DNA of 40,257 nucleotides from Fidelibacterota bacterium (GTDB lineage Bacteria; Fidelibacterota; Marinisomatia; Marinisomatales; UBA2128), in contig JBHHUM010000015.1 of assembly GCA_046861645.1 (NCBI GenBank), positions 1-40,257 of the forward strand, written 5' to 3'. The notes under the pieces were generated by a model, which ran no database searches, was not told where the DNA came from, and worked only from the letters and a program-made list of their open reading frames with translations. Each line of letters begins with the position of its first letter. Positions within the stretch are counted from its first letter, which is position 1. This document shows positions 900-25,955 of this stretch, in pieces. Position numbers and translations under genes: made by a program.

Positions 900-1232
900 A
901 TGAAATTTCTCTTCAAAACACTGCTTACCAGTTTTCTAACCTTATGGCTTTCTCTTTCTCCATGGTTGGAGACACACCACTATACTACTTTTCAAAACCG
1001 GTATAATCTCGAACAGAAAGGTCTCTGTAAGGAAGAATGTGAAAACCCTGCTCACCGCAGGGGACATATCCATCATAAGTGGTGCCAGGTACGTTTAGCA
1101 AAGTATATCGATGAATTACCTTATATTTTATTAAAAGATAACATTGTCTCACTCGACTGTTCACATACAGGGCAGTTACTGTTTTCTGTAACCTCTTTTA
1201 TAGCTTCACCCAGAGCCCCTCCCGCTTCTTAA
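900..1232 (+). CDS. putative secreted ribosome-arrest leader peptide (DUF2946/CutF/CruR-like architecture)
   Basis: N-terminal hydrophobic segment, HH, CKEEC, HRRGHIHHKWC, and C-terminal SPRAPPAS-stop (RAPP codons 1212-1223), directly upstream of a metal-uptake operon. Confidence 0.7.
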   Translation: MKFLFKTLLTSFLTLWLSLSPWLETHHYTTFQNRYNLEQKGLCKEECENPAHRRGHIHHKWCQVRLAKYIDELPYILLKDNIVSLDCSHTGQLLFSVTSFIASPRAPPAS

Positions 1233-1253
1233 TCTTCACTTTATTGAAGCTTA

Positions 1254-1297
1254 ACACTCTGATGTAGACACTCCTGGAGTGTGACTCAGAGTAGTGT
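1254..1297 (+). promoter_or_regulatory. intergenic stem-loop between the RAPP leader and the first transport gene
   Basis: ACTCTGA(1256-62) pairs with TCAGAGT(1286-92); inner ACACTC-CTG-GAGTGT(1268-82); no U-tract follows. Confidence 0.6.
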
Positions 1298-1326
1298 AGA
1301 AAACAGTAAATCTTTTACTTGGAAGG

Positions 1327-2373
1327 ATGATGAAGCGATCAATAATTGCGTGTCTGCTAATTGTCATAGGAGGACGGTCTCAAACAACGGTGAACCCTGA
1401 TATCAGTATTTTAGGTGATCTTCTCATAGAGAGAAATAGTGGTGATGTAGCGTTTTCAACTTCTGGAGTTGAATTAGCCATTCAAGGATATGTTAACCCC
1501 TTTGCTCGTGCTGATATTTTTCTACATGTTCATGATGAAGAGAGTCCGATTGAGTTAGAGGAAGCTTTCTTATCAGTTGAGAGGGGTCTTCCACTGGGGT
1601 TGGGTCTAAAAATGGGAAAATTTCGACCTAATTTTGGAAAAATCAATCGAGAGCACGCCCATACCTACTATTACATTTTACCTTCTGTTCCCGCTCAGCA
1701 AATTTTAGGTGAAGAGATGTGGTCAAGCCCAGGGATGGAAGCTGATGTATTGTTACCACTGCCGTGGTACAGTAATCTTTCTGTCGGTTATTACCAGGAA
1801 GGTATTAGTTCACATGCTCATCAACATATAGATAAAAATGCTAATGTAGATACCAGTTTATTAGAAGAATCAATGATACCTCCAGGATTTACGGGTCGCT
1901 GGTCACAGTTCCTTGACTTAAATCAAGTGACCCATGTTGAAGTAGGTATAAGTCACTTTCGAGAGCTGGGGAAAAAGGACCCGGTTACTGTGCTTGCAGG
2001 AGATATTAAAGTGAAGTGGCGTCCTGACATTTATCGTTCCCTGACCTGGCAGGCAGAATGGTTCCAAAAGGTGGAATCTGCTGAGTTAGAAGTACAAAAC
2101 GGAACTCGAGAGACTGTTAGGGCTGGATATATTTGGGTTAACTACCAGTTCAATCGTATCTGGAATACGGGAGTAATTCTCGACTTCTCTAGTAACCTCG
2201 ACTCAAAGTTTTACCAGTCGTATGGCTTGTTTGTCGGGTTCAGTCCAGTAGAGGAATCATCTGTACTGCGGGTACGCTTTCACCGGTCACATCATGGTGC
2301 AGAAGATCCTGAACTGTCACTAGTACTGCAAATGATCTGGTCGTTAGGACCTCATAAACCACATCGGTTTTAG
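1327..2373 (+). CDS. outer-membrane beta-barrel protein of the type associated with Zn/Mn ABC uptake operons
   Basis: Signal peptide, NPDISILGD, ELAIQGYVNPF, ELEEAF, His-rich loops and C-terminal LGPHKPHRF; adjacent to a metal-binding protein gene. Confidence 0.7.
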   Translation: MMKRSIIACLLIVIGGRSQTTVNPDISILGDLLIERNSGDVAFSTSGVELAIQGYVNPFARADIFLHVHDEESPIELEEAFLSVERGLPLGLGLKMGKFRPNFGKINREHAHTYYYILPSVPAQQILGEEMWSSPGMEADVLLPLPWYSNLSVGYYQEGISSHAHQHIDKNANVDTSLLEESMIPPGFTGRWSQFLDLNQVTHVEVGISHFRELGKKDPVTVLAGDIKVKWRPDIYRSLTWQAEWFQKVESAELEVQNGTRETVRAGYIWVNYQFNRIWNTGVILDFSSNLDSKFYQSYGLFVGFSPVEESSVLRVRFHRSHHGAEDPELSLVLQMIWSLGPHKPHRF

Positions 2374-2382
2374 GATAAAGTT

Positions 2383-3261
2383 GTGAGACAAACCACAATA
2401 CTACTACTGATCATTAGTTCATTTTCCTGGGGTAAAGTAAACATAGTGGCATCTATTACAGATTTAGCCGATATTGCTGCTCAAGTTGGTGGTGACAGGG
2501 TGAGTGTAACAAGTATAGCAAGGGGCAACCAGGATCCCCATTATGTAGAAATTCTTCCTTCTTATATGATGAAGGTACGAAAGGCGGATATCTATTTGGA
2601 GGTGGGAGTGGAACTTGATTTGTGGGCTCGACGGATCGTAGATGGCTCCCGTAACAAACATATCAAAGTAATTGACTGTTCGGTAAACATTCCTAAGCTG
2701 GAGGTACCAACTGGCAAGATTGACGCGAGTAGGGGGGATATCCACCGTTATGGAAATCCTCATTACTGGCTTGATCCTTTAAACGGTAAGATCATTGCTG
2801 AAGATATTACAAAAGCGTTGTCAGCAGTAGATCCTGCGGGACGGATGATTTACGAAGAGAATCTAAGGACATTGACTAATAAGATTGATTCTAAAGTAGC
2901 AGAGTGGTTGGAGGAATATTCCAGCCTGCAGAGAGAGAAAGTGATCTTCTACCATAACTCCTGGCCGTACTTTTCAAAACGATTTGGACTAAAAGTGGTC
3001 GCCTTTATAGAACCCAAACCGGGGATCATGCCGTCTCCTACTCATCTGCAAAAGCTGATAGAAGTGATTGAAGCTGAAAACATCAAAGTGGTAGCTATGG
3101 AGCCTTACTTTAGTGACAGAGCGCCCCAATTCTTGGCGCAAAAAACAGGGATCCAGGTCGTAACGCTCGCTCAATCGGTAGGCGCTCTGTCAGGGGCAGA
3201 TTCTTACCTGCAAATGATAGAGCTGAATCTGGCCACGCTAATGGAGGTATTGGGGAAATGA
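2383..3261 (+). CDS. metal (Zn/Mn) ABC transporter substrate-binding protein, ZnuA/TroA family
   Basis: QDPHY, GNPHYWLDP and YHNSWPYF motifs; signal peptide. Confidence 0.9.
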   Translation: MRQTTILLLIISSFSWGKVNIVASITDLADIAAQVGGDRVSVTSIARGNQDPHYVEILPSYMMKVRKADIYLEVGVELDLWARRIVDGSRNKHIKVIDCSVNIPKLEVPTGKIDASRGDIHRYGNPHYWLDPLNGKIIAEDITKALSAVDPAGRMIYEENLRTLTNKIDSKVAEWLEEYSSLQREKVIFYHNSWPYFSKRFGLKVVAFIEPKPGIMPSPTHLQKLIEVIEAENIKVVAMEPYFSDRAPQFLAQKTGIQVVTLAQSVGALSGADSYLQMIELNLATLMEVLGK

Positions 3262-4091
3262 TATTTGAGTATTTAGATATGATTATCTGGCCGCTACTAG
3301 CTGCTCTTGTGTTGACTGGCATTCATGTTTACTTGGGGCTTCATGTAGTGACAAGAGGTGTAATTTTTGTTGATTTAGCATTAGCTCAGGTAGCGGCTCT
3401 GGGAACTGCGGTTGGTATTCTTTTAGGTTGGGAGATTAACTCTGGTGCCACCTATTTACTTGCTTTAGGATTCACATTTTTAGGAGCCACACTTTTTTCA
3501 ATAACACGATCTCTGGACGAACGTATACCTCAGGAGGCTATTATTGGAATTACCTATGTGGTTTGTACTGCCTTGATGATTCTACTTTTCAGCAAATCAG
3601 TAGAAGGTGCTGAACATATTAATCATTTATTGATAGGATCTATTCTTTTTGTGACCCCAGGGAGAGTGGCCGCAACTTTTGTCCTTTATTCAGCCATTGG
3701 TTTATTCCATTGGCGCTATAGATCACAGTTCATGGCTGCCTCCAGGGGAAATGTCAGTGGGGATGTGAATACTCGTCTATGGGATTTCCTTTTTTACATG
3801 ACATTCGGTTTTGTCGTTACCAGTTCAGTAAAGATTGCTGGAGTACTACTTGTATTTTCTTACCTGGTTATCCCTGCAGTAGGGGCATTACTTTTTATGA
3901 ATTCAATTCGAAGCCGCTTGATTTTTGGTTGGATTTTTGGAGTTTTAGGAAGCCTTATTGGAATATTGTCGTCCCTAATGTTTGATATTCCTACTGGAGC
4001 AGCTATAATTGTGACGTTTGGATTATTTTTAGTAGTGGATATTGTCTGGTACTTGAGTCTGTCGGGTTCAAACAAGAAACAAGTAGTTTAG
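3258..4091 (+). CDS. metal ABC transporter permease (ZnuB/ABC-3 family)
   Basis: Multiple TM segments; GVIFVDLALAQVAALG and AGVLLVFSYLVIPA; ATGA overlap with the binding-protein gene. Confidence 0.9.
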   Translation: MIFEYLDMIIWPLLAALVLTGIHVYLGLHVVTRGVIFVDLALAQVAALGTAVGILLGWEINSGATYLLALGFTFLGATLFSITRSLDERIPQEAIIGITYVVCTALMILLFSKSVEGAEHINHLLIGSILFVTPGRVAATFVLYSAIGLFHWRYRSQFMAASRGNVSGDVNTRLWDFLFYMTFGFVVTSSVKIAGVLLVFSYLVIPAVGALLFMNSIRSRLIFGWIFGVLGSLIGILSSLMFDIPTGAAIIVTFGLFLVVDIVWYLSLSGSNKKQVV

Positions 4092-4111
4092 AAAGATTTT
4101 CCGTAAAATAA

Positions 4112-7100
4112 TTATAGTTGCCCCTGCAGACGGAGTACAATCATTCGGCCTAGCCTCGGTCCTCCGATTATCTCTGTATGTCGATTATCAAGTAAGTTAT
4201 TGATTGAAGCCCAAAGCTTAAAATGATCATTTATCTTATAACCTAAGTGAAGGTCAAGAATATTGTATGCTTTTATGGTGCCGTAGTAAATCCCTGATTT
4301 CCAGGCGAATTGATCCACATGACGTAAATAAGAAGCGATAGAAAATCCTTTTGGTGATTCATATGTAGCCTTGATTGACCATTTGTTCCTCGGGGCATTG
4401 ATAGGTTCCTTGGTTCCTGTGAGTGGATTTGAAAATTCTGAGATACTCAGGAAAGAGTAGTTGGCATCCAAGATGAGATTACGACTGAAAAAGTAGGTCA
4501 TACTCATGTCAGAACCCCACATAAAGACTTTTCCATAGTTAAGATAGCCTACCACTACGGGTGGGTTGCCGACGTATTGATTAGTATCCCCAACTACAAC
4601 AACACCTTTAATGTAGTCTGAAGGGGCATCGAAGAATTTATCAATTGTCAGATCGGGATCATTTGCTACTACAAGAGGGGTTACAAACAGAATGGGGCTA
4701 ACAAAGCTGTTATACCTACTGTAAAATATATCCAGTGTCCCGTAAATTTGGGGAGTCAACCGACCTTTGTAACCAAATTCCAGGGTTTGTACAATCTCCG
4801 GTTTAATAGGTTTAGGATCAATAGGGATATCGTCTTGGAAGGTACCTTTAATACGTGGATCAACGGAAGGAAATAGGAGTTTATAAAGACCATCCCAAAT
4901 TCCATTACTATTAGCGTCAGTCCATAGTTCGTGTCCTTCAGCAGGTTCGCCCTCGTCAAATACCCCATTACCTTCGGTCCCATTTAAGTCGCAGCCGGTA
5001 CATTGATAATTGCCATCTAGATCATCCCAGGGTTCACCAAAATCCCAGTGACCGTTGCCGTTGGTGTCAGTATAGGGTTCTCCTTGGATACCATCCGTCC
5101 CATAATCATGATAGTCAAACGAGCCATTATTATCAAATTCATAGACATCCACAACGTTACCCCAATAGTCGTAAACGGTATCTGTAGAGCCATCCAAGAA
5201 ACTCCAATCACCATCGCCATCGTTATCTTCGAAATTCTCCATTCCGACGTTATTATAGAACCAGTATTCTTTTTCGTCACCACTGATATCCCAGAAAGTG
5301 AGATAACCATTCTCATCACGGGGATAGAAGTATCCATTTGCTGCACCTTTGGCATACACCTTAAATACCGAAAAGCGCTGCACGAAGATATCCAGAAAAA
5401 GTGCCTGTGATGAAGGAGTATTAAATGCCTTTGCCCAGGTCAATCTGAAATTCTGGTTATCGCTGGGTCGGTACATGAGCCCAATTTTAGGAGAAATCTG
5501 CAAACCACTTGTTTTACTGAGATCGAATGACCATTTAATAGGGTTCGGTGAGTGATTTTTGCTGTCAAAATCGATGAAATGGGTAAGCTGCTCATGGACG
5601 TCAAAACGATTTGCCAGGATTAGTTCCCATTTGTCGGTCAGCTTCGTATTCGATTGAACATAAAAGCCTAGCTCATTGGTAAAGTTTCGATTATCTTCAT
5701 TCTTTTCGTCAATGCCTTCATCAATCAATCCATCACCATCATTATCGATACCGTCGGCAATGGCTCCCTGGGCATTATCAGAACCATCCAAGGAATCGTA
5801 GGAAGTGGGAATAAATCCTTCTCCGGGATCGTACCATTCGTTGTCGATCGTTTCGACCCACTCAGTGGGAGAGCCGTCTTCACCATCACCATCGTTGTCG
5901 ATCTTATCCCATAGATTATTGTCGTGAAGAATCGTGCCGTAAGTCTGAGGCATGGTACGGAAATAGTCGACACCCCACACAAACCGCTGTCGTTCATTCC
6001 AGAATGTCTTGTTGTATTGAACTTGTGCGCTGAACTTCTTGGATGTGTCTTTAATCAGCCCCCCAGTGGCCATGTTTCTGGTTTCACCAGCATAACTTGA
6101 ATTCATGTAAGTCTGGGCGAACCAGTTCTTGTAAGTCATACGCAGTTGACCGTAACGATAGATCCATCCATCGGCAAGGTACCGGGCTATGCCGGTAATG
6201 TTAATGTTTTTAGCCCAGGCATAACCGGTGGCAATGCTCATCTTGAAATCTTCATTGGGATCATAATCAATTCTTATATCTGTACGAATGTTTCGGACAT
6301 TGAAATCTAGAAAGTCATCTATACCATCACCATTGGAATCAAAGACGCGGTAAGACACTACACTGGAGTCACCTTCACATCCGAAACAACCATCCTGATT
6401 TGTATCGAAAAGCATGTTTCCTTCATGATCAAACTGATAATCTCCAAACTTGTTATTGCCATATTCTCCACTTCGGTTTTGAAACTTACTTCCCTTTTCA
6501 TCGGACTCGTCAATTTCACCATCACCGTCATTATCAATACCGTCGTACCACTTTTCATTCAAGTCATCAATGCCGTCATCGATTCCTTCGTCAATGTAGC
6601 CGTTGCCATTATTGTCAATCCCATCGGCGTAAATAATCCCATTATTATTTACTCCTGGTTCACCCGGATCAGGGATACCGTCGCCATCTAAGTCGGTAAA
6701 ATCGGAACTGTTACCATCATTGTCCAGTCCATCAGCCTGTGCTACCCAGGCATAGAAAACCCCGTTTTCCATATACCAGTCAATACCCAAACTATCAAGA
6801 TATTCTGCAGTTAATTCTCTATCATCATTTGGCCAGGGGTCAGCGATAGGTACGGCGGTAAAAGGATTACCTGATTCTAGATAGTTTGTCTGCCAAACCG
6901 CATCGAGTCCATCTCTAGTGAGGTCCCAGTTACCGATGAGAGCAAAATGATGTCCTTCCCACTCACCTTTGTTGAAATGGCGCCAGTCATCTGCCTCGAG
7001 GTAAGCACCGGAAACTTTTATGCCCCAATATTTCCATGCCTTGGCAGCACGAGCTGAAAACTTCTTAAGGTTGCGATCCCCAGCCTGGAAGTTGAGCACT

Positions 7101-7846
7101 AATGGATCAGAGAATCGGGGAGGTTTGGTTACTATATTCAGCACACCACTATGCGCATTTGGGCCGTAAGTGGCGGAGGATGGTCCCAGTACTACTTCAA
7201 TTTGTTGTACGTCGTCAGACGTCACTGGGATTACATTATAGGCTATCAGTCTGAGGGAGGGGACATTTGCCATTCGTCCATCAGTAAGAGTAAGCAAGCG
7301 GGAACTGAAACTGGAATTGAACCCCCGGGCACTCAGATTGTAACTGTCCACTCCAGACTGAGTAAAATCAACTCCCTTGATGGCTTTCATATAATCCCCA
7401 AGGTTGGTGTTGCTTTCACGCCTGATATTGCGTTCGGTAATCACGGATATAGCAGCCGGAGCGTCTTCAATACGTTCCTTGCGCCGGGAAGCAGTAACCA
7501 CGTAGGTCTGAAACTTGATAGCGGATGAAGTAAGTTCAATATCGACTATCTCCACAGCATCCTCTTCTAACTGGACACTCTGGGAAGCACTATTATAACC
7601 GATATAGCTGGCTTTAACCAGGTAGAGTCCAGCAGGTAGGTTTTCTACACTGTAAGCTCCATTAAAATCCGTAGCAGAACCAGTTGGCAAAGGTAGTGTT
7701 TCACTGGTAATAATTACATTAGCCCCCATCAAGGGTTCCCCATTGTCAGCATCAATAATGCGACCTTTGATGGCTCCACCTGCCAAGAGGTATATAGGTA
7801 CAATACCAGATATTATAAGAAACAGAACAAATCTCTGTTTCATCAT
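4112..7846 (-). CDS. TonB-dependent receptor with an N-terminal carboxypeptidase-regulatory-like domain and large Asp-rich insertions
   Basis: GRIIDADNGEPLMGANV N-domain; plug motifs VVTASRR, APAAISVI, LSARGF, IEVVLGPSSATYG; C-terminal INNLLD...GR barrel motif. Confidence 0.9.
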   Translation of the reverse strand: MMKQRFVLFLIISGIVPIYLLAGGAIKGRIIDADNGEPLMGANVIITSETLPLPTGSATDFNGAYSVENLPAGLYLVKASYIGYNSASQSVQLEEDAVEIVDIELTSSAIKFQTYVVTASRRKERIEDAPAAISVITERNIRRESNTNLGDYMKAIKGVDFTQSGVDSYNLSARGFNSSFSSRLLTLTDGRMANVPSLRLIAYNVIPVTSDDVQQIEVVLGPSSATYGPNAHSGVLNIVTKPPRFSDPLVLNFQAGDRNLKKFSARAAKAWKYWGIKVSGAYLEADDWRHFNKGEWEGHHFALIGNWDLTRDGLDAVWQTNYLESGNPFTAVPIADPWPNDDRELTAEYLDSLGIDWYMENGVFYAWVAQADGLDNDGNSSDFTDLDGDGIPDPGEPGVNNNGIIYADGIDNNGNGYIDEGIDDGIDDLNEKWYDGIDNDGDGEIDESDEKGSKFQNRSGEYGNNKFGDYQFDHEGNMLFDTNQDGCFGCEGDSSVVSYRVFDSNGDGIDDFLDFNVRNIRTDIRIDYDPNEDFKMSIATGYAWAKNINITGIARYLADGWIYRYGQLRMTYKNWFAQTYMNSSYAGETRNMATGGLIKDTSKKFSAQVQYNKTFWNERQRFVWGVDYFRTMPQTYGTILHDNNLWDKIDNDGDGEDGSPTEWVETIDNEWYDPGEGFIPTSYDSLDGSDNAQGAIADGIDNDGDGLIDEGIDEKNEDNRNFTNELGFYVQSNTKLTDKWELILANRFDVHEQLTHFIDFDSKNHSPNPIKWSFDLSKTSGLQISPKIGLMYRPSDNQNFRLTWAKAFNTPSSQALFLDIFVQRFSVFKVYAKGAANGYFYPRDENGYLTFWDISGDEKEYWFYNNVGMENFEDNDGDGDWSFLDGSTDTVYDYWGNVVDVYEFDNNGSFDYHDYGTDGIQGEPYTDTNGNGHWDFGEPWDDLDGNYQCTGCDLNGTEGNGVFDEGEPAEGHELWTDANSNGIWDGLYKLLFPSVDPRIKGTFQDDIPIDPKPIKPEIVQTLEFGYKGRLTPQIYGTLDIFYSRYNSFVSPILFVTPLVVANDPDLTIDKFFDAPSDYIKGVVVVGDTNQYVGNPPVVVGYLNYGKVFMWGSDMSMTYFFSRNLILDANYSFLSISEFSNPLTGTKEPINAPRNKWSIKATYESPKGFSIASYLRHVDQFAWKSGIYYGTIKAYNILDLHLGYKINDHFKLWASINNLLDNRHTEIIGGPRLGRMIVLRLQGQL

Positions 7847-7871
7847 ATTTCTGAAAATTCCCCCAAGTTAG

Positions 7872-7907
7872 CAATCAACCCCGCTTTAAGATAAGCGGGG
7901 TTGATTG
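7872..7907. terminator. perfect 15-bp stem-loop between the T9SS cargo gene and the TonB receptor gene
   Basis: CAATCAACCCCGCTT-TAAGAT-AAGCGGGGTTGATTG. No good U-tract on the coding (-) strand, so it may be a partial terminator or an mRNA stabiliser. Confidence 0.6.
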
Positions 7908-7938
7908 GTTTTCCAAAATTATCCGGTAAGAGACCGGA

Positions 7939-9519
7939 TTATTTAATTAGCAACATCTTGCCCATCAGCTCACGATGGTCTGCCTGTACCTTGTAGAGGT
8001 AGACACCGGAAGGAACTGGGTTACCAAGGGCATCTTTACCGCGCCAGGTGATAGTATAACGGCCTGGCTTACTGTAGCTTTGGTAAATCGTGTTAATTTC
8101 CTGACCGAGTACGGAATAAACAATCACTTTCACATCCGCGTTCTTATCCAGATCAAAAACGATATTGGTAGTGGGGTTGAACGGGTTAGGATAGTTGCCC
8201 TGAAGGGCAAATGTCTCTGGAATCGTCTCGCTGTCATGTTCTACGCTTCCCTCTACAGACTCGAAGTATGCATAAACTACACGGGTCTGTTTATCCCAGG
8301 TGCATTGATTACCCATTTCAAAAACTAGCCGACCGTCACCAGTTATAGGATCATAGTCATGATCGGAATCATCCGGGAATGTCCATGCACCAGCACTTGC
8401 TTCAGTAGCGGCACCAATGGCATAAACTACTCCAGCAACCAGAGCGTCTTCGATATCCATTCCGCTTACGATCAGGCTATAAACATAATCGTATACGGCT
8501 GTAAGGATAGCAGCTATAACCTCTGAAGAGACTCCAAATGTTGTCAGCGTTTGATCTGCAGCGGACTCAATCGCAGCCTGTAAATTCGTGCCGTCGTATA
8601 GAGCGCTGAAAGTCCCCGTGAATGTTGCAATAGCGGTCATATCGTTGTAGGTGAAGTAGTAGCTGGTGAATTGCAGTAGTTCATCGCCACTGAAAAGATC
8701 GCCATCATCTCCGGCAGGATCAAAGAGATACATCCAGTTGGCATCGAGTTCTTCGTCAAAAGGCCAGTTTTCGCCGGCAGTAGGGAAATCTCCTACGGGA
8801 AGATCAAGACCATATGTAGAGTTCAAACCAGCTACGAAATCCTGATCAGCAGGTAATTGAGCGACACCCATGATTCTATTGAGATTGCCTTCAGTATCTA
8901 CTCCACTGTCAGAATCTGGGCCATCAGTTGCGTCCCATTCGATGGTGATGGTTGTAATAGCGCCGTCACCGTCTCTTACTACGGTAACCCAGCCGTGGTT
9001 CTCCTGACTCTGATCCATACTGTACAGGTCGAAGATATTCGATTCTACGACACCAAATCCTCCACCATTATCGACTCCATCCCACTCATATGTACCTGCA
9101 TCCTGGATTGTGGGGATGTAGGCATAGGTAGAGCAGTTCTCGGTAGTAGTAGTGGGGTATGTGCTGGTTGGGATCTGAAAAGTGCCATCGCTGTTGAGTG
9201 TGATCGTTAAGTCGATGCCGTAAGCTGCCAGTCCTTCGGGAGTCAATAGTTCGTCAGGTGTAATGGGAGCGGCAATCGTATCGCCCGGAGCGTATTCAGA
9301 CACCGGATAATCAAACATGGATGTCACAGCGCTGGGCCAGGAGAGTACTAAAGCGGGGCTGCCATCAATATCGGCTTCGGCATCACCTGAATCCCGGGCT
9401 ACATCATAATACTGTATTTGTACACCTTCTAGGTGGAAAGTTCCACTCAGGCCTTGAGCTGGTAGACTTCCACAGATTAGGCACAAGGCAAAAGTCACCA
9501 ATAGCCATTTAGCTTTCAT
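7939..9519 (-). CDS. acidic secreted protein with a C-terminal T9SS type A sorting / FlgD-Ig-like domain
   Basis: Signal peptide; C-terminal NYPNPFNPTT...VYSVLGQEI...WRGKD..G..VPSGVYLY...KMLLIK. Confidence 0.85.
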   Translation of the reverse strand: MKAKWLLVTFALCLICGSLPAQGLSGTFHLEGVQIQYYDVARDSGDAEADIDGSPALVLSWPSAVTSMFDYPVSEYAPGDTIAAPITPDELLTPEGLAAYGIDLTITLNSDGTFQIPTSTYPTTTTENCSTYAYIPTIQDAGTYEWDGVDNGGGFGVVESNIFDLYSMDQSQENHGWVTVVRDGDGAITTITIEWDATDGPDSDSGVDTEGNLNRIMGVAQLPADQDFVAGLNSTYGLDLPVGDFPTAGENWPFDEELDANWMYLFDPAGDDGDLFSGDELLQFTSYYFTYNDMTAIATFTGTFSALYDGTNLQAAIESAADQTLTTFGVSSEVIAAILTAVYDYVYSLIVSGMDIEDALVAGVVYAIGAATEASAGAWTFPDDSDHDYDPITGDGRLVFEMGNQCTWDKQTRVVYAYFESVEGSVEHDSETIPETFALQGNYPNPFNPTTNIVFDLDKNADVKVIVYSVLGQEINTIYQSYSKPGRYTITWRGKDALGNPVPSGVYLYKVQADHRELMGKMLLIK

Positions 9520-17086: not shown

Positions 17087-17338
17087 CTAATGCGAATTTT
17101 GCTTAAACACTGTAATTGTCGAGCAAGGTTCACCATAGAGGATATGATCGGCATGTTGAGCCAAGTGGGCCGTGATGATCAGATAAGACCAGGTAGGAAC
17201 TGGGACATCACTACATCCTTTAATTAAGACTTTCTTACCGTAATACTGAGACCAGTCTATAGCATTCACTGCTTGACGGAAGGGTTGTTCTTTCAGGATA
17301 CCGTTGTCGAGGAAATCGTCGAGGTAGATAGTTTCCAT
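17087..17338 (-). CDS. DUF2480 family protein, short form
   Basis: GILKE..FR...DWSQY, VLIKGCS..PVP and YGEPCS motifs; at the end of the suf cluster. Confidence 0.75.
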   Translation of the reverse strand: METIYLDDFLDNGILKEQPFRQAVNAIDWSQYYGKKVLIKGCSDVPVPTWSYLIITAHLAQHADHILYGEPCSTITVFKQNSH

Positions 17339-17685
17339 TAAACCGAAAAGGATGTTCCACAGCCACAGGTACGCTGGGCATTGGGATTATTGAACCTGAA
17401 TCCTCCTGAAAGAAGATCAGTGGAAAAGTCTATTTCCATTCCCTGCAGATAGAGTAAAGACTTCATATCTACAATTAGCTCAATACCGTGATGATGATAA
17501 ACTTTATCGAACTCACCTTTCTCGTTGTCCCATTCCAATTGATAGCTCATTCCAGAGCAGCCACCACCCTTAACGGAAGCCCGGAGGTAAGTACCTTCAT
17601 CACTCGTACGTATCTTAAGTAATCGCTCTGCCGCAACTTTGGTAATCGTTACATCTTGAAGAATTTGTTCATCCAAATTTGTCAT
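17338..17685 (-). CDS. A-type Fe-S carrier (HesB/IscA/SufA family)
   Basis: GGGCSGMSY and FNNPNAQRTCGCGTSF. Confidence 0.95.
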   Translation of the reverse strand: MTNLDEQILQDVTITKVAAERLLKIRTSDEGTYLRASVKGGGCSGMSYQLEWDNEKGEFDKVYHHHGIELIVDMKSLLYLQGMEIDFSTDLLSGGFRFNNPNAQRTCGCGTSFSV

Positions 17686-17688
17686 TTA

Positions 17689-18063
17689 TTACTCCCACTG
17701 TTTTGAACTTACTTCTGGGTTCCTTTTAGCTTGAGGTGCAAATCCTAATTTTGATTTAGCTTCTTCACTCATCATTTCCGGATTCCACGGTGGATCGAAT
17801 ACTACTCGCACACTGGCTTCAGAAATGTCGGGTACGGCTTCAAGTTTAGATTTGATATCCTGAGCCATATGGTTGCCCATGGCACATCCTGGGGTGGTTA
17901 AGGACATAACGATATTTACATAACAGTTGTCATTTTGATCCTGTATCTGGATCTCATAAATAAGACCGAGATTCCACAGATCGATAGGAATTTCAGGATC
18001 ATAACACTGTTTTAGAATTTCCACTACTTGGGCTTCGGTGACTGACATGATCTTCTCCTTCAA
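17689..18063 (-). CDS. DUF59/MIP18 metal-sulfur cluster assembly factor (short SufT-like)
   Basis: YDPEIPIDLWNLGLIY, MSLTTPGC and VFDPPW motifs. Start may be a few codons later (MSVTE). Confidence 0.9.
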   Translation of the reverse strand: MKEKIMSVTEAQVVEILKQCYDPEIPIDLWNLGLIYEIQIQDQNDNCYVNIVMSLTTPGCAMGNHMAQDIKSKLEAVPDISEASVRVVFDPPWNPEMMSEEAKSKLGFAPQAKRNPEVSSKQWE

Positions 18064-18458
18064 TGGGTGACGTCATAGAGGGTCATTTTATCGAATAAAC
18101 CACGGATATTCTCGTTGATGCGCTGGATGGGTAATTTGATGCAGCAAGTTTTTAAAAGGTCGCAATCTAGATCAACAGAGCAATCAACCATTCCTATCGG
18201 TCCCTCCAGCATTTCAATAAAATCGGTCATTGAAATATCAGAAAGATTTACGGCCAACTTATAGCCCCCCCGTGCCCCCTGAACTGGGCGAAGAATCTCC
18301 TTTTTTGCCAGCTCCTGTAAGATTTTTGCCAGCAGAGGCAGCGGGATGCTGTATTCCTCAGCTATCTCCCGGGCATTCGTTAGCACATCATTTCCTGTAA
18401 GTTGTAGATGCCTGAGGGCAATGAGTGCGTATTCGGTTTTCTTGGTGAATTTCAGCAT
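18060..18458 (-). CDS. Rrf2 family transcriptional regulator (IscR/SufR-like, Cys-containing)
   Basis: TEYALIAL, LAKILQ.L, GARGGY.L; C-terminal C-x5-C-x5-CC. Confidence 0.9.
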   Translation of the reverse strand: MLKFTKKTEYALIALRHLQLTGNDVLTNAREIAEEYSIPLPLLAKILQELAKKEILRPVQGARGGYKLAVNLSDISMTDFIEMLEGPIGMVDCSVDLDCDLLKTCCIKLPIQRINENIRGLFDKMTLYDVTH

Positions 18459-18486
18459 ATCTATTTAGATCCCATGCTAGGTTGCC

Positions 18487-18515
18487 AAATTAAGTGCAGG
18501 TTAATTTTTAGGCAA
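18487..18515 (-). promoter_or_regulatory. putative internal promoter upstream of the Rrf2 gene
   Basis: TTGCCT, 17-nt spacer, TAATTT in the sufS-rrf2 gap. Confidence 0.5.
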
Positions 18516-18525
18516 GGTACATCCA

Positions 18526-19788
18526 TCAACTTGTACCCATAAATTCTCTGGCTTTTTCGATGGCGGTGCTAAGAAAGTCGATTTCTTCCTTGGTGTTGTA
18601 GAAATGGAAGCTGGCTCGTGTGGTTGCTGGTACACCTAACCTGTCCATAATTGGTTGAGCACAGTGGTGACCGGCTCTTATGGCAATATGTCGTTGATCA
18701 AGTATCTGAGCCAAATCATGTGGATGAATGTTGTCGACATTAAAGCTGATAACCGGTCCACGTGGATTAGCATTACCATAAATCGTCAATCCTGGGATGT
18801 TACTTAGGGTAGACAATGCGTATTGAATCAATTCTCTTTCATGATTGATGAGTGCCTTCCGATTTAGGGGTTTTAAATAATCAATGGCTGCCCCTAATCC
18901 TATTGCCTGGGCAATTTTTGGTGTGCCTGCTTCGAATTTCCAGGGTACTTCATTCCAGGTTGAATTATCCATGGTAACCTGTTCAATCATCTCTCCACCA
19001 CCAAGAAATGGGTCCATTATTTCCAACAGTTCTTGTCTTGAGTAAAGTACACCTATACCTGTAGGCCCAAGCATCTTGTGTCCAGAGAAGACTAGGAAGT
19101 CGCAGTCGAGTGCTGTGACATCTACCGGGGAATGGGGTACGCTTTGGGCAGCATCAACCAATGATAAAGCCCCTATATCTTTGGCTCGGGCAATGAGTTG
19201 GGCTACAGGATTTATAGTTCCTAGAACATTTGACTGGTGAATCATAGCTACGATCTTTGTCTTTGGATTGAGCAATTCATCAATCTTGGAAAAATCCAAG
19301 TTGCCATTTTCCAGTATAGGGATGTAGCGGAGAGAAGCTCCAGTATCCCGGGAAGCAAGCTGCCACGGGACGATATTACTGTGGTGTTCCATTTCGGTGA
19401 TGAGAATCTCGTCTCCAGGACGAAGGTTATGTCGTCCCCAGGCATAAGCGACCAGATTTATAGATTCTGTTGCCCCTCCTGTAAAGACGATATGACTGCT
19501 GTCTGGAGCATTAATGAACTGTGCTACTTTCTGGCGGGCTCCTTCATATTCTTCAGTGGCTCTTTCTCCCAGGGAATAGATAGCACGGTGTACATTGGCA
19601 CTGTATTCTTCATAATATTCTTTAACTGCGGCAATGACAGAGTATGGTTTCAAGGTAGTAGAAGCGTTATCGAGATAAACGGGTACAGTGCCACCATCTT
19701 TAGACTGTAAAATCGGGAAATCCTGGCGAAGAGCTTCCACGTTCAGTTCGGGAATAGTGGTTCTCAATTTTTCAGTAGGTATCATCAT
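18526..19788 (-). CDS. sufS: cysteine desulfurase SufS
   Basis: YLDNAST, MEHHSN, FSGHKMLGPTG and RAGHHCA. Confidence 0.95.
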   Translation of the reverse strand: MMIPTEKLRTTIPELNVEALRQDFPILQSKDGGTVPVYLDNASTTLKPYSVIAAVKEYYEEYSANVHRAIYSLGERATEEYEGARQKVAQFINAPDSSHIVFTGGATESINLVAYAWGRHNLRPGDEILITEMEHHSNIVPWQLASRDTGASLRYIPILENGNLDFSKIDELLNPKTKIVAMIHQSNVLGTINPVAQLIARAKDIGALSLVDAAQSVPHSPVDVTALDCDFLVFSGHKMLGPTGIGVLYSRQELLEIMDPFLGGGEMIEQVTMDNSTWNEVPWKFEAGTPKIAQAIGLGAAIDYLKPLNRKALINHERELIQYALSTLSNIPGLTIYGNANPRGPVISFNVDNIHPHDLAQILDQRHIAIRAGHHCAQPIMDRLGVPATTRASFHFYNTKEEIDFLSTAIEKAREFMGTS

Positions 19789-19790
19789 CC

Positions 19791-20369
19791 CTACATCATT
19801 CCTAGCTTTAACTGTGCGGCTTCAGTCATCATACTCCGATCCCAAGGTGGATCCCATACCAGTTCTACGGTTACTTCTCCTACACCGGGGATATGACTGA
19901 TCTTCTGTCGGGCATCGTCAGCAATCAGTTCACCTAAACCGCAACCAGGAGCTGTTAGAGTCATCTTGATTTCAATATTTGTGCTTCCATTTGTCTGAGG
20001 TTTCAGTTCGCAAGAATATATAAGTCCCAAATCTACTATGTTTATGGGGATTTCTGGATCGTAACAGGTCCTCAGAGCATCCCAGACAAGTTTACTGGTC
20101 ACTTTTTGAGTATTATCACCGTCTTGAGTAGTTGAGAGAGCCGTGATCTTTTCTCCAATTGTACTATCCGGGATAGACTCCATACCGATGGCATCGGCAT
20201 CTTTGCCATCAATACGAACCAGACTTCCCCGGATGAAGAGGGTATAGCTTCCTCCCAGGGCTTGCGTGATGGTGGCTTCATCACCTTTCCGGAGGGTTAC
20301 AGATTCACCATAGGGTATGAGGATAGCCTGACAATCTCTGGTAAACGTAACCTGCTTATTATTCTCCAT
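19791..20369 (-). CDS. sufT: Fe-S cluster assembly protein SufT, long form
   Basis: N-terminal RDC.A..IP.G...ITQALGGSYT plus a DUF59 domain (YDPEIP, TLTAPGC, WDPPW). Confidence 0.9.
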   Translation of the reverse strand: MENNKQVTFTRDCQAILIPYGESVTLRKGDEATITQALGGSYTLFIRGSLVRIDGKDADAIGMESIPDSTIGEKITALSTTQDGDNTQKVTSKLVWDALRTCYDPEIPINIVDLGLIYSCELKPQTNGSTNIEIKMTLTAPGCGLGELIADDARQKISHIPGVGEVTVELVWDPPWDRSMMTEAAQLKLGMM

Positions 20370-20372
20370 AGT

Positions 20373-20816
20373 TTACTCTGTCTTCGCGATAGCTTTTGAT
20401 CCTACTAACGCATTTTTAGCGGTATGCCAGGCTAACATGGCACATTTTACCCGTGCTGGATACTTATGAATACCAGAGAGCACGGCTAATTTGCCCAAGT
20501 CACTATCTGGGATTTCTCCTGTAGTAGCCATTCGTTGAAATGTTTGGAAGAGAGCTATGACCTCTGTTCTGGTTTTTCCCTTGAGAACAGTAGTCATTAT
20601 AGATGCGGATGCTTTAGAAATGGCACAGCCTGAACCAACAAACTTTACGTCCTCGACTAATTCATCTGTCATCTTCAGGTAGAGTGTTAACCGGTCGCCG
20701 CAGAGGGGGTTGAACCCGTCAGCTTTAGCTGTGGCATCAACCAACTCTCCAAAATTGTGAGGGTTTTGGTTGTGGTCCAGGATTAACTCCCGGTAGAGTT
20801 CCCTTAGATCGTCCAT
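20373..20816 (-). CDS. sufU: SUF system NifU-family protein SufU
   Basis: NPLCGD, GCAISKASAS and ARVKCA. Confidence 0.92.
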   Translation of the reverse strand: MDDLRELYRELILDHNQNPHNFGELVDATAKADGFNPLCGDRLTLYLKMTDELVEDVKFVGSGCAISKASASIMTTVLKGKTRTEVIALFQTFQRMATTGEIPDSDLGKLAVLSGIHKYPARVKCAMLAWHTAKNALVGSKAIAKTE

Positions 20817-22144
20817 TACGATTTATGACTCATTAATGTCAACAGCCAGTTGGAGAGGATTCGGTAGAGGTAGATATTTACGGCTCCAATTTGGACCTCA
20901 TCAATAATTTCATTGGCAAAGCCATTTATTAATAAACTCTGGGCGGTGAGTACGTCTAAGCCACGGGATCGGAGATAAAATATTGCGTCCTCATCTAACT
21001 GACCTGTAGTGGAACCATGTGTACAGCGTACATTGTCAGCGTAGATCTCCAATTGTGGATTGGAGTTAACCAGTGCTTTTTCTGATAAAAGCAGATTCTT
21101 ATTAGACTGTTCAGCATTAGTAATTTGTGCTTCCTCTCTGACGATTATACGCCCATTGAAAACACCCCGGGATGAATCAGTGTGGATTCCTTTGAAGATT
21201 TCGCGACTACTTCCGTGAGGTGCTTGATGGTCAATAAGTGTATGATTGTCCTGATGTTGTTCTCCAGAAGCTAATACCAGACCGGAGAGGTTACACTCTG
21301 CTCCTTCGCCGACTAACCTGACGCGAAGATCATTACGACTCAACCGGGCACCAACGGTAAATATCGCAGAAGTCAGCACGGCATTTGTATGAACTTCTGC
21401 CTGAGTTACCGCCAAGTGGTCGACGATAGTTGCTTCTTCTTGAATTTTTACATGGTGGAGAACTGCATTGTGATCGATCTTTATTTCTGTGACAACATTG
21501 GTCAATGATGGACTACCATCCCAGCTGGCATAATGCTCAATGATTGTGGCTTCACTACCTTCTTCGAGGAAGATTATATTGCGATAGTTATACATGACTT
21601 CCTTTTCGTGGGTAGTGGTAAGATATAGAATATGAATGGGTCGGGGGATTACCTCTCCTTTGGGAACGTGAATTAAGACACCGTCACTCATAAAGGCAGT
21701 ATTAAGAGCCACAAAGGTTTCATCGTAAAAGGTTGCCAGGTTGCCCAGTAAGGAGTCAATCATTTTTCTTTCCTGAATCGAAGCCTCAGAAAATAGGTTT
21801 ATCACACTTGCCTGCGCTGCTGCCTTTTGAATGAAAGATAGTTCGGTTGAGTAATTACCATCTACGATTACAATTGTAGAAACATGCTGGGGATCGATCA
21901 AGAAATACTGAAGGTCTTTCTTAGTAAGCTTGGGATACAAGGTCGGGGCAAGAGCGTATTCACTTTTAGCCAGTCGGGAAACATCTGTTTCCCGCCAGTC
22001 TTCCATGTTAGTAGTGGGAAACCCCAGCTCGCAGAATCGTTCCATAGCTTGGTATCTTAGTTCAAGAAGTGAAGATTTTTGACCATCCTGTGACTCTGTT
22101 AGCAGTTGAAACTGTTGTCTGAAGTTTTCAAATGTTTCAGTCAT
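20816..22144 (-). CDS. sufD: Fe-S cluster assembly protein SufD
   Basis: PQLEIYADNVRCTHGST and FYLRSRG. Confidence 0.95.
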   Translation of the reverse strand: MTETFENFRQQFQLLTESQDGQKSSLLELRYQAMERFCELGFPTTNMEDWRETDVSRLAKSEYALAPTLYPKLTKKDLQYFLIDPQHVSTIVIVDGNYSTELSFIQKAAAQASVINLFSEASIQERKMIDSLLGNLATFYDETFVALNTAFMSDGVLIHVPKGEVIPRPIHILYLTTTHEKEVMYNYRNIIFLEEGSEATIIEHYASWDGSPSLTNVVTEIKIDHNAVLHHVKIQEEATIVDHLAVTQAEVHTNAVLTSAIFTVGARLSRNDLRVRLVGEGAECNLSGLVLASGEQHQDNHTLIDHQAPHGSSREIFKGIHTDSSRGVFNGRIIVREEAQITNAEQSNKNLLLSEKALVNSNPQLEIYADNVRCTHGSTTGQLDEDAIFYLRSRGLDVLTAQSLLINGFANEIIDEVQIGAVNIYLYRILSNWLLTLMSHKS

Positions 22145-22148
22145 ATTT

Positions 22149-22904
22149 TTAGGTAGGAACTACATCTTCCTCGAGCCAAGAGTACCCTTTATCCTCAAGT
22201 TCATGAGCCAGCTCTTTATCTCCTGTACGAACGATACGACCATCCAGAAGAACATGAATCACGTCTGGTTCCATATACTGCAGGATTCGCTGGTAATGAG
22301 TGATAACTACTATAGCCCGATCTTCCCTTCGATAATTATCTATCCCACGGGCGATGATTTGTAGGGCATCAATATCAAGTCCAGAATCGGTTTCGTCCAG
22401 AATAGCTAAACGGGGTTCAAGTGTTAGTAGTTGCAGTATTTCGTTACGTTTTTTTTCACCGCCAGAGAAACCTTCATTTACAGCTCGTCGCAGATAACTT
22501 TCATCCATGGCTACTTTCTTCATTTTTTCTTTAATGAAGGTAAGGAAGTCCATAGCATCCATCTCTTCTTCACCACGGTATTTCCTGAGGGCATTTACCG
22601 CAGCCTTAAGAAAGTAAGTATTATTGACACCCGGGATGGTTACAGGGTACTGAAAAGACATAAAAATGCCCTCCAGAGCTCGCTTTTCAGGGCTCATTTC
22701 AGTTAAGTCCTGTCCATTGAAAAGAATTTCTCCTTGAGTGATTTGATATTGTTCTCGTCCTACGATGACATTGGCGAGGGTGCTCTTACCAGAACCATTC
22801 CGTCCCATGATAGCATGGAGTTCTCCTGTTCCAACGGAAAGGTTGAGTCCTTTCAGGATTTCTTTTCCTTCTACTTGAACATGTACGTCATTGATTTCTA
22901 ACAT
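22149..22904 (-). CDS. sufC: Fe-S cluster assembly ATPase SufC
   Basis: GRNGSGKST, GFSGGEKKR and LDETDSGLDID. Confidence 0.97.
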   Translation of the reverse strand: MLEINDVHVQVEGKEILKGLNLSVGTGELHAIMGRNGSGKSTLANVIVGREQYQITQGEILFNGQDLTEMSPEKRALEGIFMSFQYPVTIPGVNNTYFLKAAVNALRKYRGEEEMDAMDFLTFIKEKMKKVAMDESYLRRAVNEGFSGGEKKRNEILQLLTLEPRLAILDETDSGLDIDALQIIARGIDNYRREDRAIVVITHYQRILQYMEPDVIHVLLDGRIVRTGDKELAHELEDKGYSWLEEDVVPT

Positions 22905-22939
22905 AGAGTCTCCATTTCCAGTTTAGTCGGAAGGGAGTC

Positions 22940-24388
22940 CTATCCAACGCTCCCTTCCAGACTAACTTCCAGCAGTTTTTGTGCTTCCACGGCAAATTCC
23001 ATAGGCAGCTCTCGGAAAACCTCCTTGCAGAAGCCGTTTACAATCATTGATACTGTATCTTCTGTGGAGATGCCCCGTTGGTTGCAATAGAAGATTTGAT
23101 CCTCACCTATTGTGGATGTGGATGCTTCGTGTTCCATCTGAGCGGACGGATTCCGGACGTCAATATAGGGAAATGTGTGAGCGCCACATCTTTCACCAAT
23201 AAGTAGTGAATCACACTGGGAATAATTACGAGCATTATGGGCACCTTTCATAATCTTAACCATACCGCGATAGGTATTCTGCCCGTAGCCAGCGCTTACT
23301 CCTTTGGAGATAATGGTACTGCGGGTATTTTTTCCAATGTGTATCATTTTAGTTCCAGTATCGGCTTGCTGATAGTTGTTTGTAAGAGCTACAGAGTAGA
23401 ATTGACCAACAGAATTATCGCCTTGCAGGATACAACTGGGATATTTCCAGGTGATGGCTGAACCAGTTTCCACCTGGGTCCAGGATATCTTGGAATTTTT
23501 ACCACGGCAGGCGCCCCGCTTGGTAACAAAATTGTAGATACCTCCCTTGCCTTCCTTATCTCCGGGATACCAATTCTGCACGGTAGAATACTTGATCTCA
23601 GCATTATCAAGTGTGATTAGTTCCACAACGGCAGCATGTAGCTGGTTCTCGTCTCTCATGGGGGCTGTGCACCCTTCAAGATAACTGACATAACTTCCCT
23701 CTTCGGCTATAATAAGCGTCCGCTCAAACTGTCCAGTGTTAGAAGCATTGATACGAAAATAAGTTGATAATTCCATGGGACAACGGACACCCTTGGGAAT
23801 GTAAACGAAGCTACCATCACTGAAAACGGCAGAGTTCAAGGCGGCAAAATAGTTATCGGTATAAGGTACTACAGTGCCGAGATATTTTCGCACTAACTCA
23901 GGATGATTAAAGACTGCTTCCGAAAATGAACAGAATATGATGTCATATTTTTTTAACTCTTTTTTGAAGGTAGTTGCCACTGATACTGAATCAAAAACTG
24001 CATCTACAGCGACACCAGCCAGAACTTTCTGCTCTTCCAGCGGGATACCCAGCTTGTTGTAAGTATCCAGAATTTCGGCATCCACATCTTCCAGGCTTTG
24101 AGGTCCTTCTGTCTTACTCTTGGGGGCAGCATAGTAACTGATTGCCTGATAATCAATGGGGTCGTACTTAACCTTGGACCAGGTAGGTTCTACCATCTTA
24201 AGCCAGTGCTGAAAAGCCTTCAAGCGCCAGTCAGTCAACCATTCCGGTTCCTGCTTCTTAGCGGAAAGTGAGCGTATGACGTCCTCATTTAGTCCGGGAG
24301 AGAAAGTATCCTGTTCAATATCTGTGACAAATCCGTACTTATAGTCCTGCCCGGTGAAAGACTCGATGGTATCCAGTTTGCTGGTCAT
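22940..24388 (-). CDS. sufB: Fe-S cluster assembly protein SufB
   Basis: [16 protein letters not shown] and [17 protein letters not shown]. Confidence 0.97.
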
Positions 24389-24905: not shown

Positions 24906-25955
24906 TCAGGAGATAGTGATAGTGCTTTTTTCTTCTTCCAAGATGGTTCCAATCTTGAAAGCAGGAGTGGGAGAAAGGTTGTTGAACTCTTTTAAAAAGT
25001 CCTGTTGCTGCTCTTCAGAAATGGCGATCAATAATCCCCCGGAGGTTTGTGCATCACTTAACATTATTTTATTATGGTAAGGAAAGTCAGCTGAGAAAAC
25101 AACATGAGTCTTTACGAAGTCCAGATTTCGTTTGCTACCTCCGGGGATGACATTGTTATGTGCCAGCTCCTCTACTCCAGGAATAAATTGTATGCTGCTG
25201 TACTTCACCTCTGCCGAAACACTACTTGCCTGAGACATTTCCAGAAGATGACCTAACAATCCGTAACCGGTGACGTCTGTAGCTGCATGTGCTTTGTACT
25301 TGAGCATTAAATCAGCAGCCGTGCGGTTCAAAGTGCTCATGATTGTAGTAGCTTCTGTTATCATCCCATCCGAGGCAATACCTCTTTTAATAGCGGTGGC
25401 AATTATACCGGTTCCCAGAGGTTTGGTAAGAACCAAGGCATCACCTGGTTGAGCAGTTGAATTTCTGACCAAGTCTCTCACTTTTCCACTTCCGGTGATC
25501 ACCAGTCCATATTTGGGTTCTTTGTCATCAATGCTGTGTCCTCCGACTATACTGATGCCGGCTTCCCTGGCTTTGTCACTCCCTCCCCGTAGAATCTGTG
25601 CAAGTATATCCATAGAAAGATCTTTGCTGGGGAAAGCCACAATATTCAGGGCGAAGAGCGGTTTAGCACCCATGGCATAGATATCTGAGAGGGAGTTAGC
25701 AGCAGCGATTTGTCCAAAAGCATAAGGATCATCCACAATAGGAGTGAAGAAGTCCACTGTCTGAACAATAGTACTCTCATCGTCAATACGTACTACGGCG
25801 GCATCGTCAACTCCGTGGAAGTCAACAATCACGTTTTCATCATCTGATGCAGGCAGCAGGCTCAGAACCTGAGCCAGGTCCTTAGGACCTAACTTGCAGG
25901 CTCAACCGGAGCCGTGGCTGAACTGTGTCAGTCGCTTGGCTTCTGCGCTGGCCAT
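24906..25955 (-). CDS. selD: selenide,water dikinase (selenophosphate synthetase), selenoprotein with Sec18, 349 aa
   Basis: From ATG 25955 the frame reads MASAEAKRLTQFSHGSG-TGA(25902-04)-ACKLGP and continues into the tracked ORF (DDAAV, QTVDFFTP, GGHS, DAQTSGGLL). U-x-C-K is the SelD active-site motif. Confidence 0.95.

Follow-up and report, generated by a model that had tools for sequence, protein, structure and literature searches.

A conserved RAPP-type leader with a His/Cys cluster, a candidate metal-responsive arrest peptide, upstream of a putative zinc-import operon in Marinisomatota

The closest described systems are small leader proteins that arrest the translating ribosome and thereby control the gene that follows. 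CruR of Bordetella pertussis (Bp2923, DUF2946/PF11162; PMC9426467), for which arrest was shown in PMC12992588, heads the gene of a TonB copper receptor and carries an invariant CxxC; 45 residues separate its metal motif from a RAPP motif, this spacing matters, and a Rho site has been mapped in cruR (PMC9426467). CutF of Rhodobacter capsulatus stalls at a PPP motif when copper is present, is sensitive to EF-P and switches on a detoxifying oxidase (bioRxiv 10.1101/2025.02.05.636593). Small exported proteins with RAPP or RGPP motifs were reported upstream of metal-homeostasis genes across Gram-negative phyla (Fujiwara et al. 2025, PMC12992588); the motif alone was insufficient for arrest, regulation was, as far as this source describes it, tested for copper alone, and the word zinc does not occur in its main text as covered here. 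The source data of the same study contain at least 9 rows before 'zinc-regulated TonB-dependent' receptors and 137 RAPP leaders before DUF2796 genes, the family of the Zur-regulated zinc protein ZrgA. In the Vibrio zrg zinc operon, where a DUF2607 gene adjoins zrgA, zinc limitation raised the mRNA 75-206-fold but a promoter fusion only ∼2-fold (PMC9817125), a gap that, together with the 137 RAPP leaders, would fit an added leader-peptide layer. Searches of the open-access literature turned up no account of a RAPP leader that senses zinc, and terms for Marinisomatota or ZnuA were not found in the part of the PMC12992588 supplements that was covered.

Here we describe a leader of this kind in the window, by which we mean the whole stretch of DNA analysed (40,257 nucleotides, source genome G000). 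The 110-aa ORF, its motifs and the hairpin behind it were located where the initial annotation had placed them (Table 1). Translation can start at ATG 900 (an in-frame GTG also stands at 897) and ends with TAA 1230-1232, and a protein collection contains a 110-aa gene call on the same contig. The C-terminus reads SPRAPPAS (P104-R105-A106-P107-P108-A109-S110), with the R105 codon at 1212 and the last Pro of RAPP at 1221-1223. The putative ligands are encoded at 975-980 (H26-H27), 1026-1040 (C43xxxC47) and 1053-1085 (H52xxxH56xH58H59xxC62). At the N-terminus the best 15-residue Kyte-Doolittle mean was 1.57, which is only moderately hydrophobic and just below a cut of ≥1.6 that was reached by 73 of 76 leaders of the family described below. 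In the AlphaFold2 model the ligand region was of low confidence (pLDDT 50-59; pTM 0.37), making the metal-site geometry unusable, and the C-terminal half was predicted to be unstructured. The motif itself is exceptional in this genome: R[AGS]PP within the last 14 residues occurred in one of 3243 G000 ORFs of 70-200 aa, the window leader, and RAPP, RGPP and RSPP were not found at all in the 540,374 residues of 1030 long G000 ORFs, matching the reported exclusion of RAPP-type motifs from proteomes (PMC12992588).

Table 1. Positions of the leader, its candidate regulatory elements and the downstream genes in the window
Feature	Position	Strand	Basis
110-aa leader ORF, candidate arrest peptide of the RAPP type	900..1232	+	ORF, conservation, motif, dN/dS
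N-terminal helix, residues 2-31, signal-peptide- or anchor-like	900..992	+	AlphaFold2 pLDDT 86-98; hydrophobicity 1.57
His/Cys cluster (H26/H27, C43, C47, H52, H56/H58/H59, C62), putative metal site	975..1085	+	column conservation, 72 leaders
Candidate Rho utilisation site, rich in C and poor in G (21 C, 5 G and 15 YC dimers within 63 nt), its core predicted to lie under the stalled ribosome	1183..1245	+	
Codons of R105-A106-P107-P108, where the predicted arrest places P107 in the P site and P108 in the A site	1212..1223	+	register from PMC10951233, PMC12992588
Core of the intergenic hairpin, with an outer stem that may reach 1240-1310, candidate pause/spacer element, RBS outside	1254..1295	+	folding
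Porin ribosome-binding region, GGAAGG 1321-1326, ATG 1330, in predicted small local hairpin 1310-1328	1310..1332	+	
Outer-membrane porin-like beta-barrel, 347 aa, no Pfam or NCBIfam family	1330..2373	+	predicted structure, structure matches
ZnuA-type (PF01297) solute-binding protein of cluster A-I, with H53, H127, H191 and Q264 at the ligand positions	2383..3261	+	HMM, alignment
ABC-3 permease, PF00950, no ATPase gene after it	3258..4091	+	HMM

The initial annotation had proposed a CruR/CutF-like design, and the design is indeed shared (a leader with a Cys motif and a RAPP or Pro-rich end), but membership in DUF2946 was not borne out, as none of 72 aligned leaders matched the DUF2946 HMM. PF11162 was not found in 19 or in 72 leaders at E ≤ 1 (in the 72-leader scan, among the matches listed, for 25 of 26 families), nor was there a DUF2946 match in G000 at E ≤ 10; profile searches of large protein libraries gave 55 and 10 matches and no Pfam bridge to DUF2946. 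A language-model search returned a single DUF2946-named cluster at rank 28 of the best 30 (score 0.95, 157/256 features), which is a lead only. Pfam and NCBIfam assigned no family to the leader, and the LIC10965 family was matched weakly in 3 of 72 leaders (best E 5e-4). Like CruR, the window leader is the first gene of a metal-import operon, has an export-like N-terminus, places a Cys motif ∼45 residues before a C-proximal RAPP and carries a C>G tract in its second half, with a predicted stall-ON, metal-OFF behaviour. It differs in its phylum, in the lack of a PF11162 match, in the genes that it heads (a porin, a ZnuA-type protein and an ABC-3 permease) and in its ligands: instead of an invariant CxxC the family has an H..H..CxxxC..H..C/HxxC set, present in the window as C43xxxC47 and H59xxC62, and many homologues show pairing of the leader tail with the ribosome-binding site (RBS) of the next gene. 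With CutF it shares a putative export signal, a CxxxC, the Pro-rich end and, in the family, a predicted control by RNA structure at the RBS of the next gene. Since CutF heads an oxidase and the window RAPP leader heads an importer, the opposite sign is expected. The Fujiwara class consists of small exported proteins with a C-terminal RAPP or RGPP upstream of metal genes, and here, too, we found a conserved R[AG]PP-like motif close to the C-terminus of a small, apparently exported protein that precedes its presumed target. Judged by its sequence, the leader is a genuine, well-conserved RAPP leader and a His-rich variant of a published type. On balance we favour the reading that it arrests the ribosome translating it, which would leave the importer switched on under metal scarcity, and that metal, probably zinc, releases the arrest and turns the operon off.

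We examined the conservation of this arrangement at porin loci. The porin occurred in 20 of the 61 related genomes, a count that includes G000, and the leader preceded it in 18/18 of those among the 19 further loci that had upstream DNA. A scan of a larger collection with the single porin sequence found no relative, while a narrower alignment found relatives in Marinisomatota/Fidelibacterota and two Zixibacteria, in line with the FCB-type lineage proposed from the window alone. This gave 44 distinct porin loci that were chosen by the porin rather than by the leader, one of them without upstream DNA, and the leader stood upstream in 40 of the other 43 (39 by script and L004 by separate inspection). 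It was absent from L120, L125 and L128; the leaderless porin operon of L128 (3254-3874) retains the DUF3467-like gene found upstream in the window and is a natural deletion control. A profile built from 19 leaders matched 63 of 301 genomes of the phylum and one place in G000. Including leaders from 40 further stretches we collected 76 distinct ones, a set that is partly motif-selected and excludes four others: in two the contig stopped short of the motif, and two had no gene downstream. They ended in RAPP (41), RGPP (13), RPPP (12), RSPP (4), RASP (4), RVPP (1) and KSPP (1), with 2-5 codons from motif to stop in 73/76, and the second motif residue was fully or partly arrest-permissive by ApdA/ApdP mutagenesis (PMC12992588) in 71/76. 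In the alignment of 72 of these leaders the mean column identity was 23%, conservation being confined to the ligands and the last motif: H27 was kept in 68, C43 in 59, C47 in 57 and H52 in 65, along with R105, P107 and P108; position 32 was His in 61 (Gln in the window leader), position 59 was Cys in 65 and His in 6, among them the window leader, and position 62 was Cys in 33. The distance from position 59 to the Arg was 45-48 residues in 72/72 leaders, and that from the second Cys to the Arg 42-44 residues in 33/33. dN/dS was below 1 in 45/45 leader pairs of 60-95% identity (median 0.17), which indicates purifying selection, although these pairs are non-independent and none contains the window leader; as the genomes are related, the conservation counts are likewise not independent. 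Thus the RAPP motif, the His/Cys ligands and their spacing are kept in syntenic homologues, as the initial annotation had led one to expect.

The genes that follow the leader are of the metal-importer type, as had been proposed. In contrast to a complete ZnuABC importer, the operon has no ATPase gene: none lies in the gap from 4091 to 4112, where a convergent gene is reached. The 347-aa protein from ATG 1330 was modelled as an all-beta barrel (pLDDT 80) whose best structural matches are porins, e.g. OprP, OmpT and DcaP (E ∼1e-9, TM ∼0.6); with regard to the label 'zinc-regulated TonB-dependent receptor', the named matches among the best 120 for this porin were all 'hypothetical'. In G000 the ZnuA family and the ABC-3 family are represented by a single gene each, both in this operon, and there is no clear ZnuC orthologue (best 34% identity to the ZnuC of a relative). 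At 29 of 33 permease loci no ATPase gene was found within up to 1.5 kb downstream, and at the remaining four there was an ATPase with a permease of its own behind it. ZnuA operons that lack the porin, seen in four relatives, are ordinary ZnuABC operons including the ATPase. Two proteins are encoded in the convergent region 4112-9519 (-): a TonB-dependent receptor of 1244 aa that contains Asp/Gly-rich repeats, and a protein of 526 aa whose C-terminal domain is FlgD/type IX-like. Elsewhere in the window we noted by eye a SUF-type Fe-S cluster operon at 17338-24388 (-) and, at 24906-25832 (-), a selD-like gene that seems to have been called from too late a start, with a possible selenocysteine upstream.

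The identity of the metal was approached through the binding protein and through the genes that the leaders precede. We take the ligands of PsaA, a manganese-type cluster A-I protein like MntC, to be His, His, Glu and Asp; by alignment the window protein differs from this set with His, His, His and Gln, and because His stands at the PsaA Glu position in 46/46 homologues, manganese is disfavoured. His-rich sites also bind nickel and cobalt well, and binding proteins with three His are not strictly specific for zinc. The fourth position is Gln in 36/46, the window included, and a further His, H121, just before the second ligand, is invariant (46/46). AdcA has the same three His (His63, His140, His204) but Glu279 as the fourth ligand (PMC7858048). 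Of the four metals originally considered (Zn, Ni, Co or Mn), the ligands thus speak against manganese and make zinc the best guess, with nickel and cobalt as remaining candidates. The first gene downstream of the 76 leaders was the porin in 47, an acidic/His-rich lipoprotein in 21 (with a TonB receptor next in the four checked), a TonB receptor in 4, MerC in 2 and an ABC-2 ATPase in 2 (with a DUF3526 permease alongside in the one checked); in Caulobacter, an ABC-2 system is repressed by Zur (PMC4176598). L065 and L072 each carry two leaders on opposite strands, one before a lipoprotein and TonB receptor and one before MerC. The same arrest leader could instead read nickel, cobalt or copper, or could work with the CutF-like sign, the metal inducing the stall. 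CutF uses CxxxC and CruR uses CxxC as its copper motif, and some targets, MerC and the TonB receptors, leave room for another metal; however, the binding protein has three His in 46/46 homologues, none of the 76 first downstream genes belongs to the copper-chaperone or oxidase class, and as the targets are importers, a metal-ON switch makes little sense. We therefore regard this alternative as unlikely, if the strongest of those considered. In our main reading the metal is probably zinc, and provided that the leader senses a metal at all, zinc seems to us a somewhat better than even choice.

ApdA, ApdP and SecM share with the window leader the RAPP core and show the stall register and the control of the next gene by the stalled ribosome that are predicted for it, but they are protein-export monitors that head sec/yidC genes and, as described in PMC10951233, have no His/Cys cluster. 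A leader could likewise monitor export or disulfide formation without sensing any metal, so that the porin and the periplasmic protein would be made in step with the capacity for secretion. Secretion monitoring is an established role of RAPP leaders that carry export signals (PMC10951233), exported products are encoded by nearly all of the first downstream genes, and paired Cys could form disulfides, as proposed for CutF (bioRxiv 10.1101/2025.02.05.636593). This account would leave several features of the family unexplained, however: four His positions are conserved beside the Cys, position 59 exchanges Cys for His in 6/72, 10 of 76 leaders lack both CxxxC and CxxC and still keep His and a single Cys, and the targets are metal-uptake genes rather than sec genes. 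We consider it improbable, and we retain a metal-responsive arrest as the better description.

Conventional control by a Zur or Fur repressor found little support. The initial annotation had seen no convincing box upstream, and neither did we: the best match upstream of the window leader had 4-5 mismatches to the Fur/Zur consensus boxes, and such patterns showed no enrichment upstream of 74 leaders. Among the same 74, no upstream motif was common to more than four loci, and 9-bp inverted repeats were commoner than in shuffles (26/74 versus 17%). Eleven of the 76 leaders begin ≤20 nt from the upstream gene, five of them overlapping its stop, and thus little space is left there for an operator. 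G000 has two Fur-family genes, one adjoining feoB and a DtxR-type gene and the other a peroxiredoxin, and no Zur-like paralogue was found; the Zur model ranked fifth and lowest for the feoB-side gene and was absent for the other. When the best Fur loci of 30 relatives were compared, 22 adjoined a feoB-like gene (by eye) and the other 8 shared a helicase neighbourhood. Because 7 of 61 genomes hold three Fur-family matches and the comparison covered the best loci, some relatives may still have a Zur.

How could a stalled leader affect the next gene? The C>G skew in the 75 nt before the Arg codon was above 0 in 74/76 leaders (median 0.28 versus -0.12 for 1491 G000 gene ends) and above that of same-locus coding DNA in 76/76, and the leader 3' end was less structured in 61/76. 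The skew exceeded synonymous recoding in 57/76 (p ≤ 0.05 in 16), much of it coming from Ser-rich, Gly-poor residues (null mean 0.20 versus 0.28); for the window alone this comparison was not significant (p 0.10). A Rho gene is present in G000, so that both elements of a CruR-type attenuator, a C>G tract at the leader 3' end and Rho, are at hand, and Rho-dependent termination is predicted. The intergenic hairpin, which the initial annotation had pointed out, is real (the core starts 22 nt after the leader stop; 1233-1313 folds at -24.1 kcal/mol, and 6 of 500 dinucleotide shuffles were as stable), but it does not overlap the porin RBS and its sequence is not conserved. Intergenic hairpins are frequent in the family (z ≤ -2 in 37/73 loci), with sequences that differ by inspection, and Rfam gave no family match in the window. 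As an intrinsic terminator the hairpin was rejected, being not terminator-like and with no terminator called, as was a direct shielding of the porin RBS, which it does not cover. A relay switch through a 12-bp helix (1177-1188/1297-1308) was also rejected: modelled ribosome queues left the RBS closed, at an opening cost of 5.2-5.5 kcal/mol.

In the family at large, by contrast with these window-specific candidates, pairing between leader tail and RBS stood above controls. A modelled stalled ribosome cut the RBS opening cost by a median of 1.75 kcal/mol in 72 leaders (four of the 76 with long spacers being left out) versus 0.01 at control junctions (170 of 269 run), and by ≥2 kcal/mol in 32/72 versus 14/170. 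The leader-tail/RBS duplex was better than under uniform synonymous recoding in 56/72 (p ≤ 0.05 in 23), and cognate pairs beat swapped pairs in 46/72; L005, L011, L014 and L018 have clear tail-RBS helices of differing sequence. In the window, the duplex was no better than under synonymous recoding (-6.5 versus -7.6, p 0.745), the RBS remained in its local hairpin in most modelled states, and the effect of the ribosome was -0.3 or +3.6 kcal/mol depending on the 5' folding boundary. Compared with the RBS-hairpin switch of CutF, therefore, the window hairpin excludes the RBS and no robust switch was found. This bears on a further alternative, namely that the family is regulatory while the window copy or its subgroup is a weakened switch, the operon being approximately constitutive from an upstream promoter. 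Besides the lack of a clear RBS switch, the Gln at the usual His position 32 and the loss of the leader from 3/43 porin loci would agree with it, as would the His-59 subgroup to which the window leader belongs (n = 6): four of its members end in RASP, which would count as non-permissive by the ApdA/ApdP mutagenesis (PMC12992588). On the other hand, the RAPP of the window copy is canonical, its remaining ligands and their spacing are kept and its C>G tract is strong, and every RASP leader has a Pro-Pro pair just upstream of the motif. The closest leader relatives (L015, L016, L060, L101) end in LPPSRASP, possibly a different arrest motif. To us a weakened switch appears about as improbable as a secretion monitor. 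Least probable of all is that the leader encodes a small accessory protein of the importer, membrane-anchored or periplasmic, that binds metal and has an incidental RAPP, since, for all the purifying selection and the confident N-terminal helix, only the ligands and the last motif stand out from 23% mean column identity, the C-terminal half is predicted unstructured, the motif is otherwise excluded from the G000 proteome, the leader comes first in the operon and the ligand-to-Arg spacing is fixed.

We therefore return to metal-released arrest. The ribosome would very probably arrest with P107 in the P site, a register taken from RAPP peptides (PMC10951233) and the CruR toeprint (PMC12992588). 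During arrest the His/Cys cluster would already be clear of the tunnel, at a distance of 45-80 residues from the catalytic centre, and metal-driven folding could then pull the chain free; we think it likely that arrest is released in this way. Sensing may take place in the cytoplasm or at the translocon/periplasm: the signal peptide is needed by CutF (bioRxiv 10.1101/2025.02.05.636593) but not by CruR (PMC9426467). The arrested ribosome would cover ∼1204-1233 and, as in cruR, keep Rho off the C>G tract, and it would also hide the tail that in many homologues pairs with the downstream RBS; with Rho loading blocked and the anti-RBS tail covered where present, the importer would stay on. On release, Rho could terminate transcription near the intergenic hairpin, or the RBS could be occluded, or both, and the operon would be turned off.

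As the principle is published and the arrangement is widespread, the surprise is limited; in the literature considered, however, metal sensing by a leader peptide has been shown for copper alone, and no riboswitch is known for copper or zinc according to PMC9426467. A zinc-reading arrest peptide would, if true, fill this riboswitch-less gap for zinc. It is conceivable, though we put it forward tentatively, that in Marinisomatota, apparently without Zur, the leader is the main zinc sensor and a portable switch before unrelated importers (porin-ZnuA-permease, lipoprotein-TonB receptor, MerC, ABC-2/DUF3526), with a co-translational His/Cys site distinct from the copper CxxC and an output through Rho masking and RBS release. 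The 76 natural variants lend themselves to asking how Cys or His at position 59 bears on the choice of metal, and whether the output runs through Rho or through the RBS. If true, the leader would explain how zinc uptake is controlled in an abundant marine phylum without an evident Zur.
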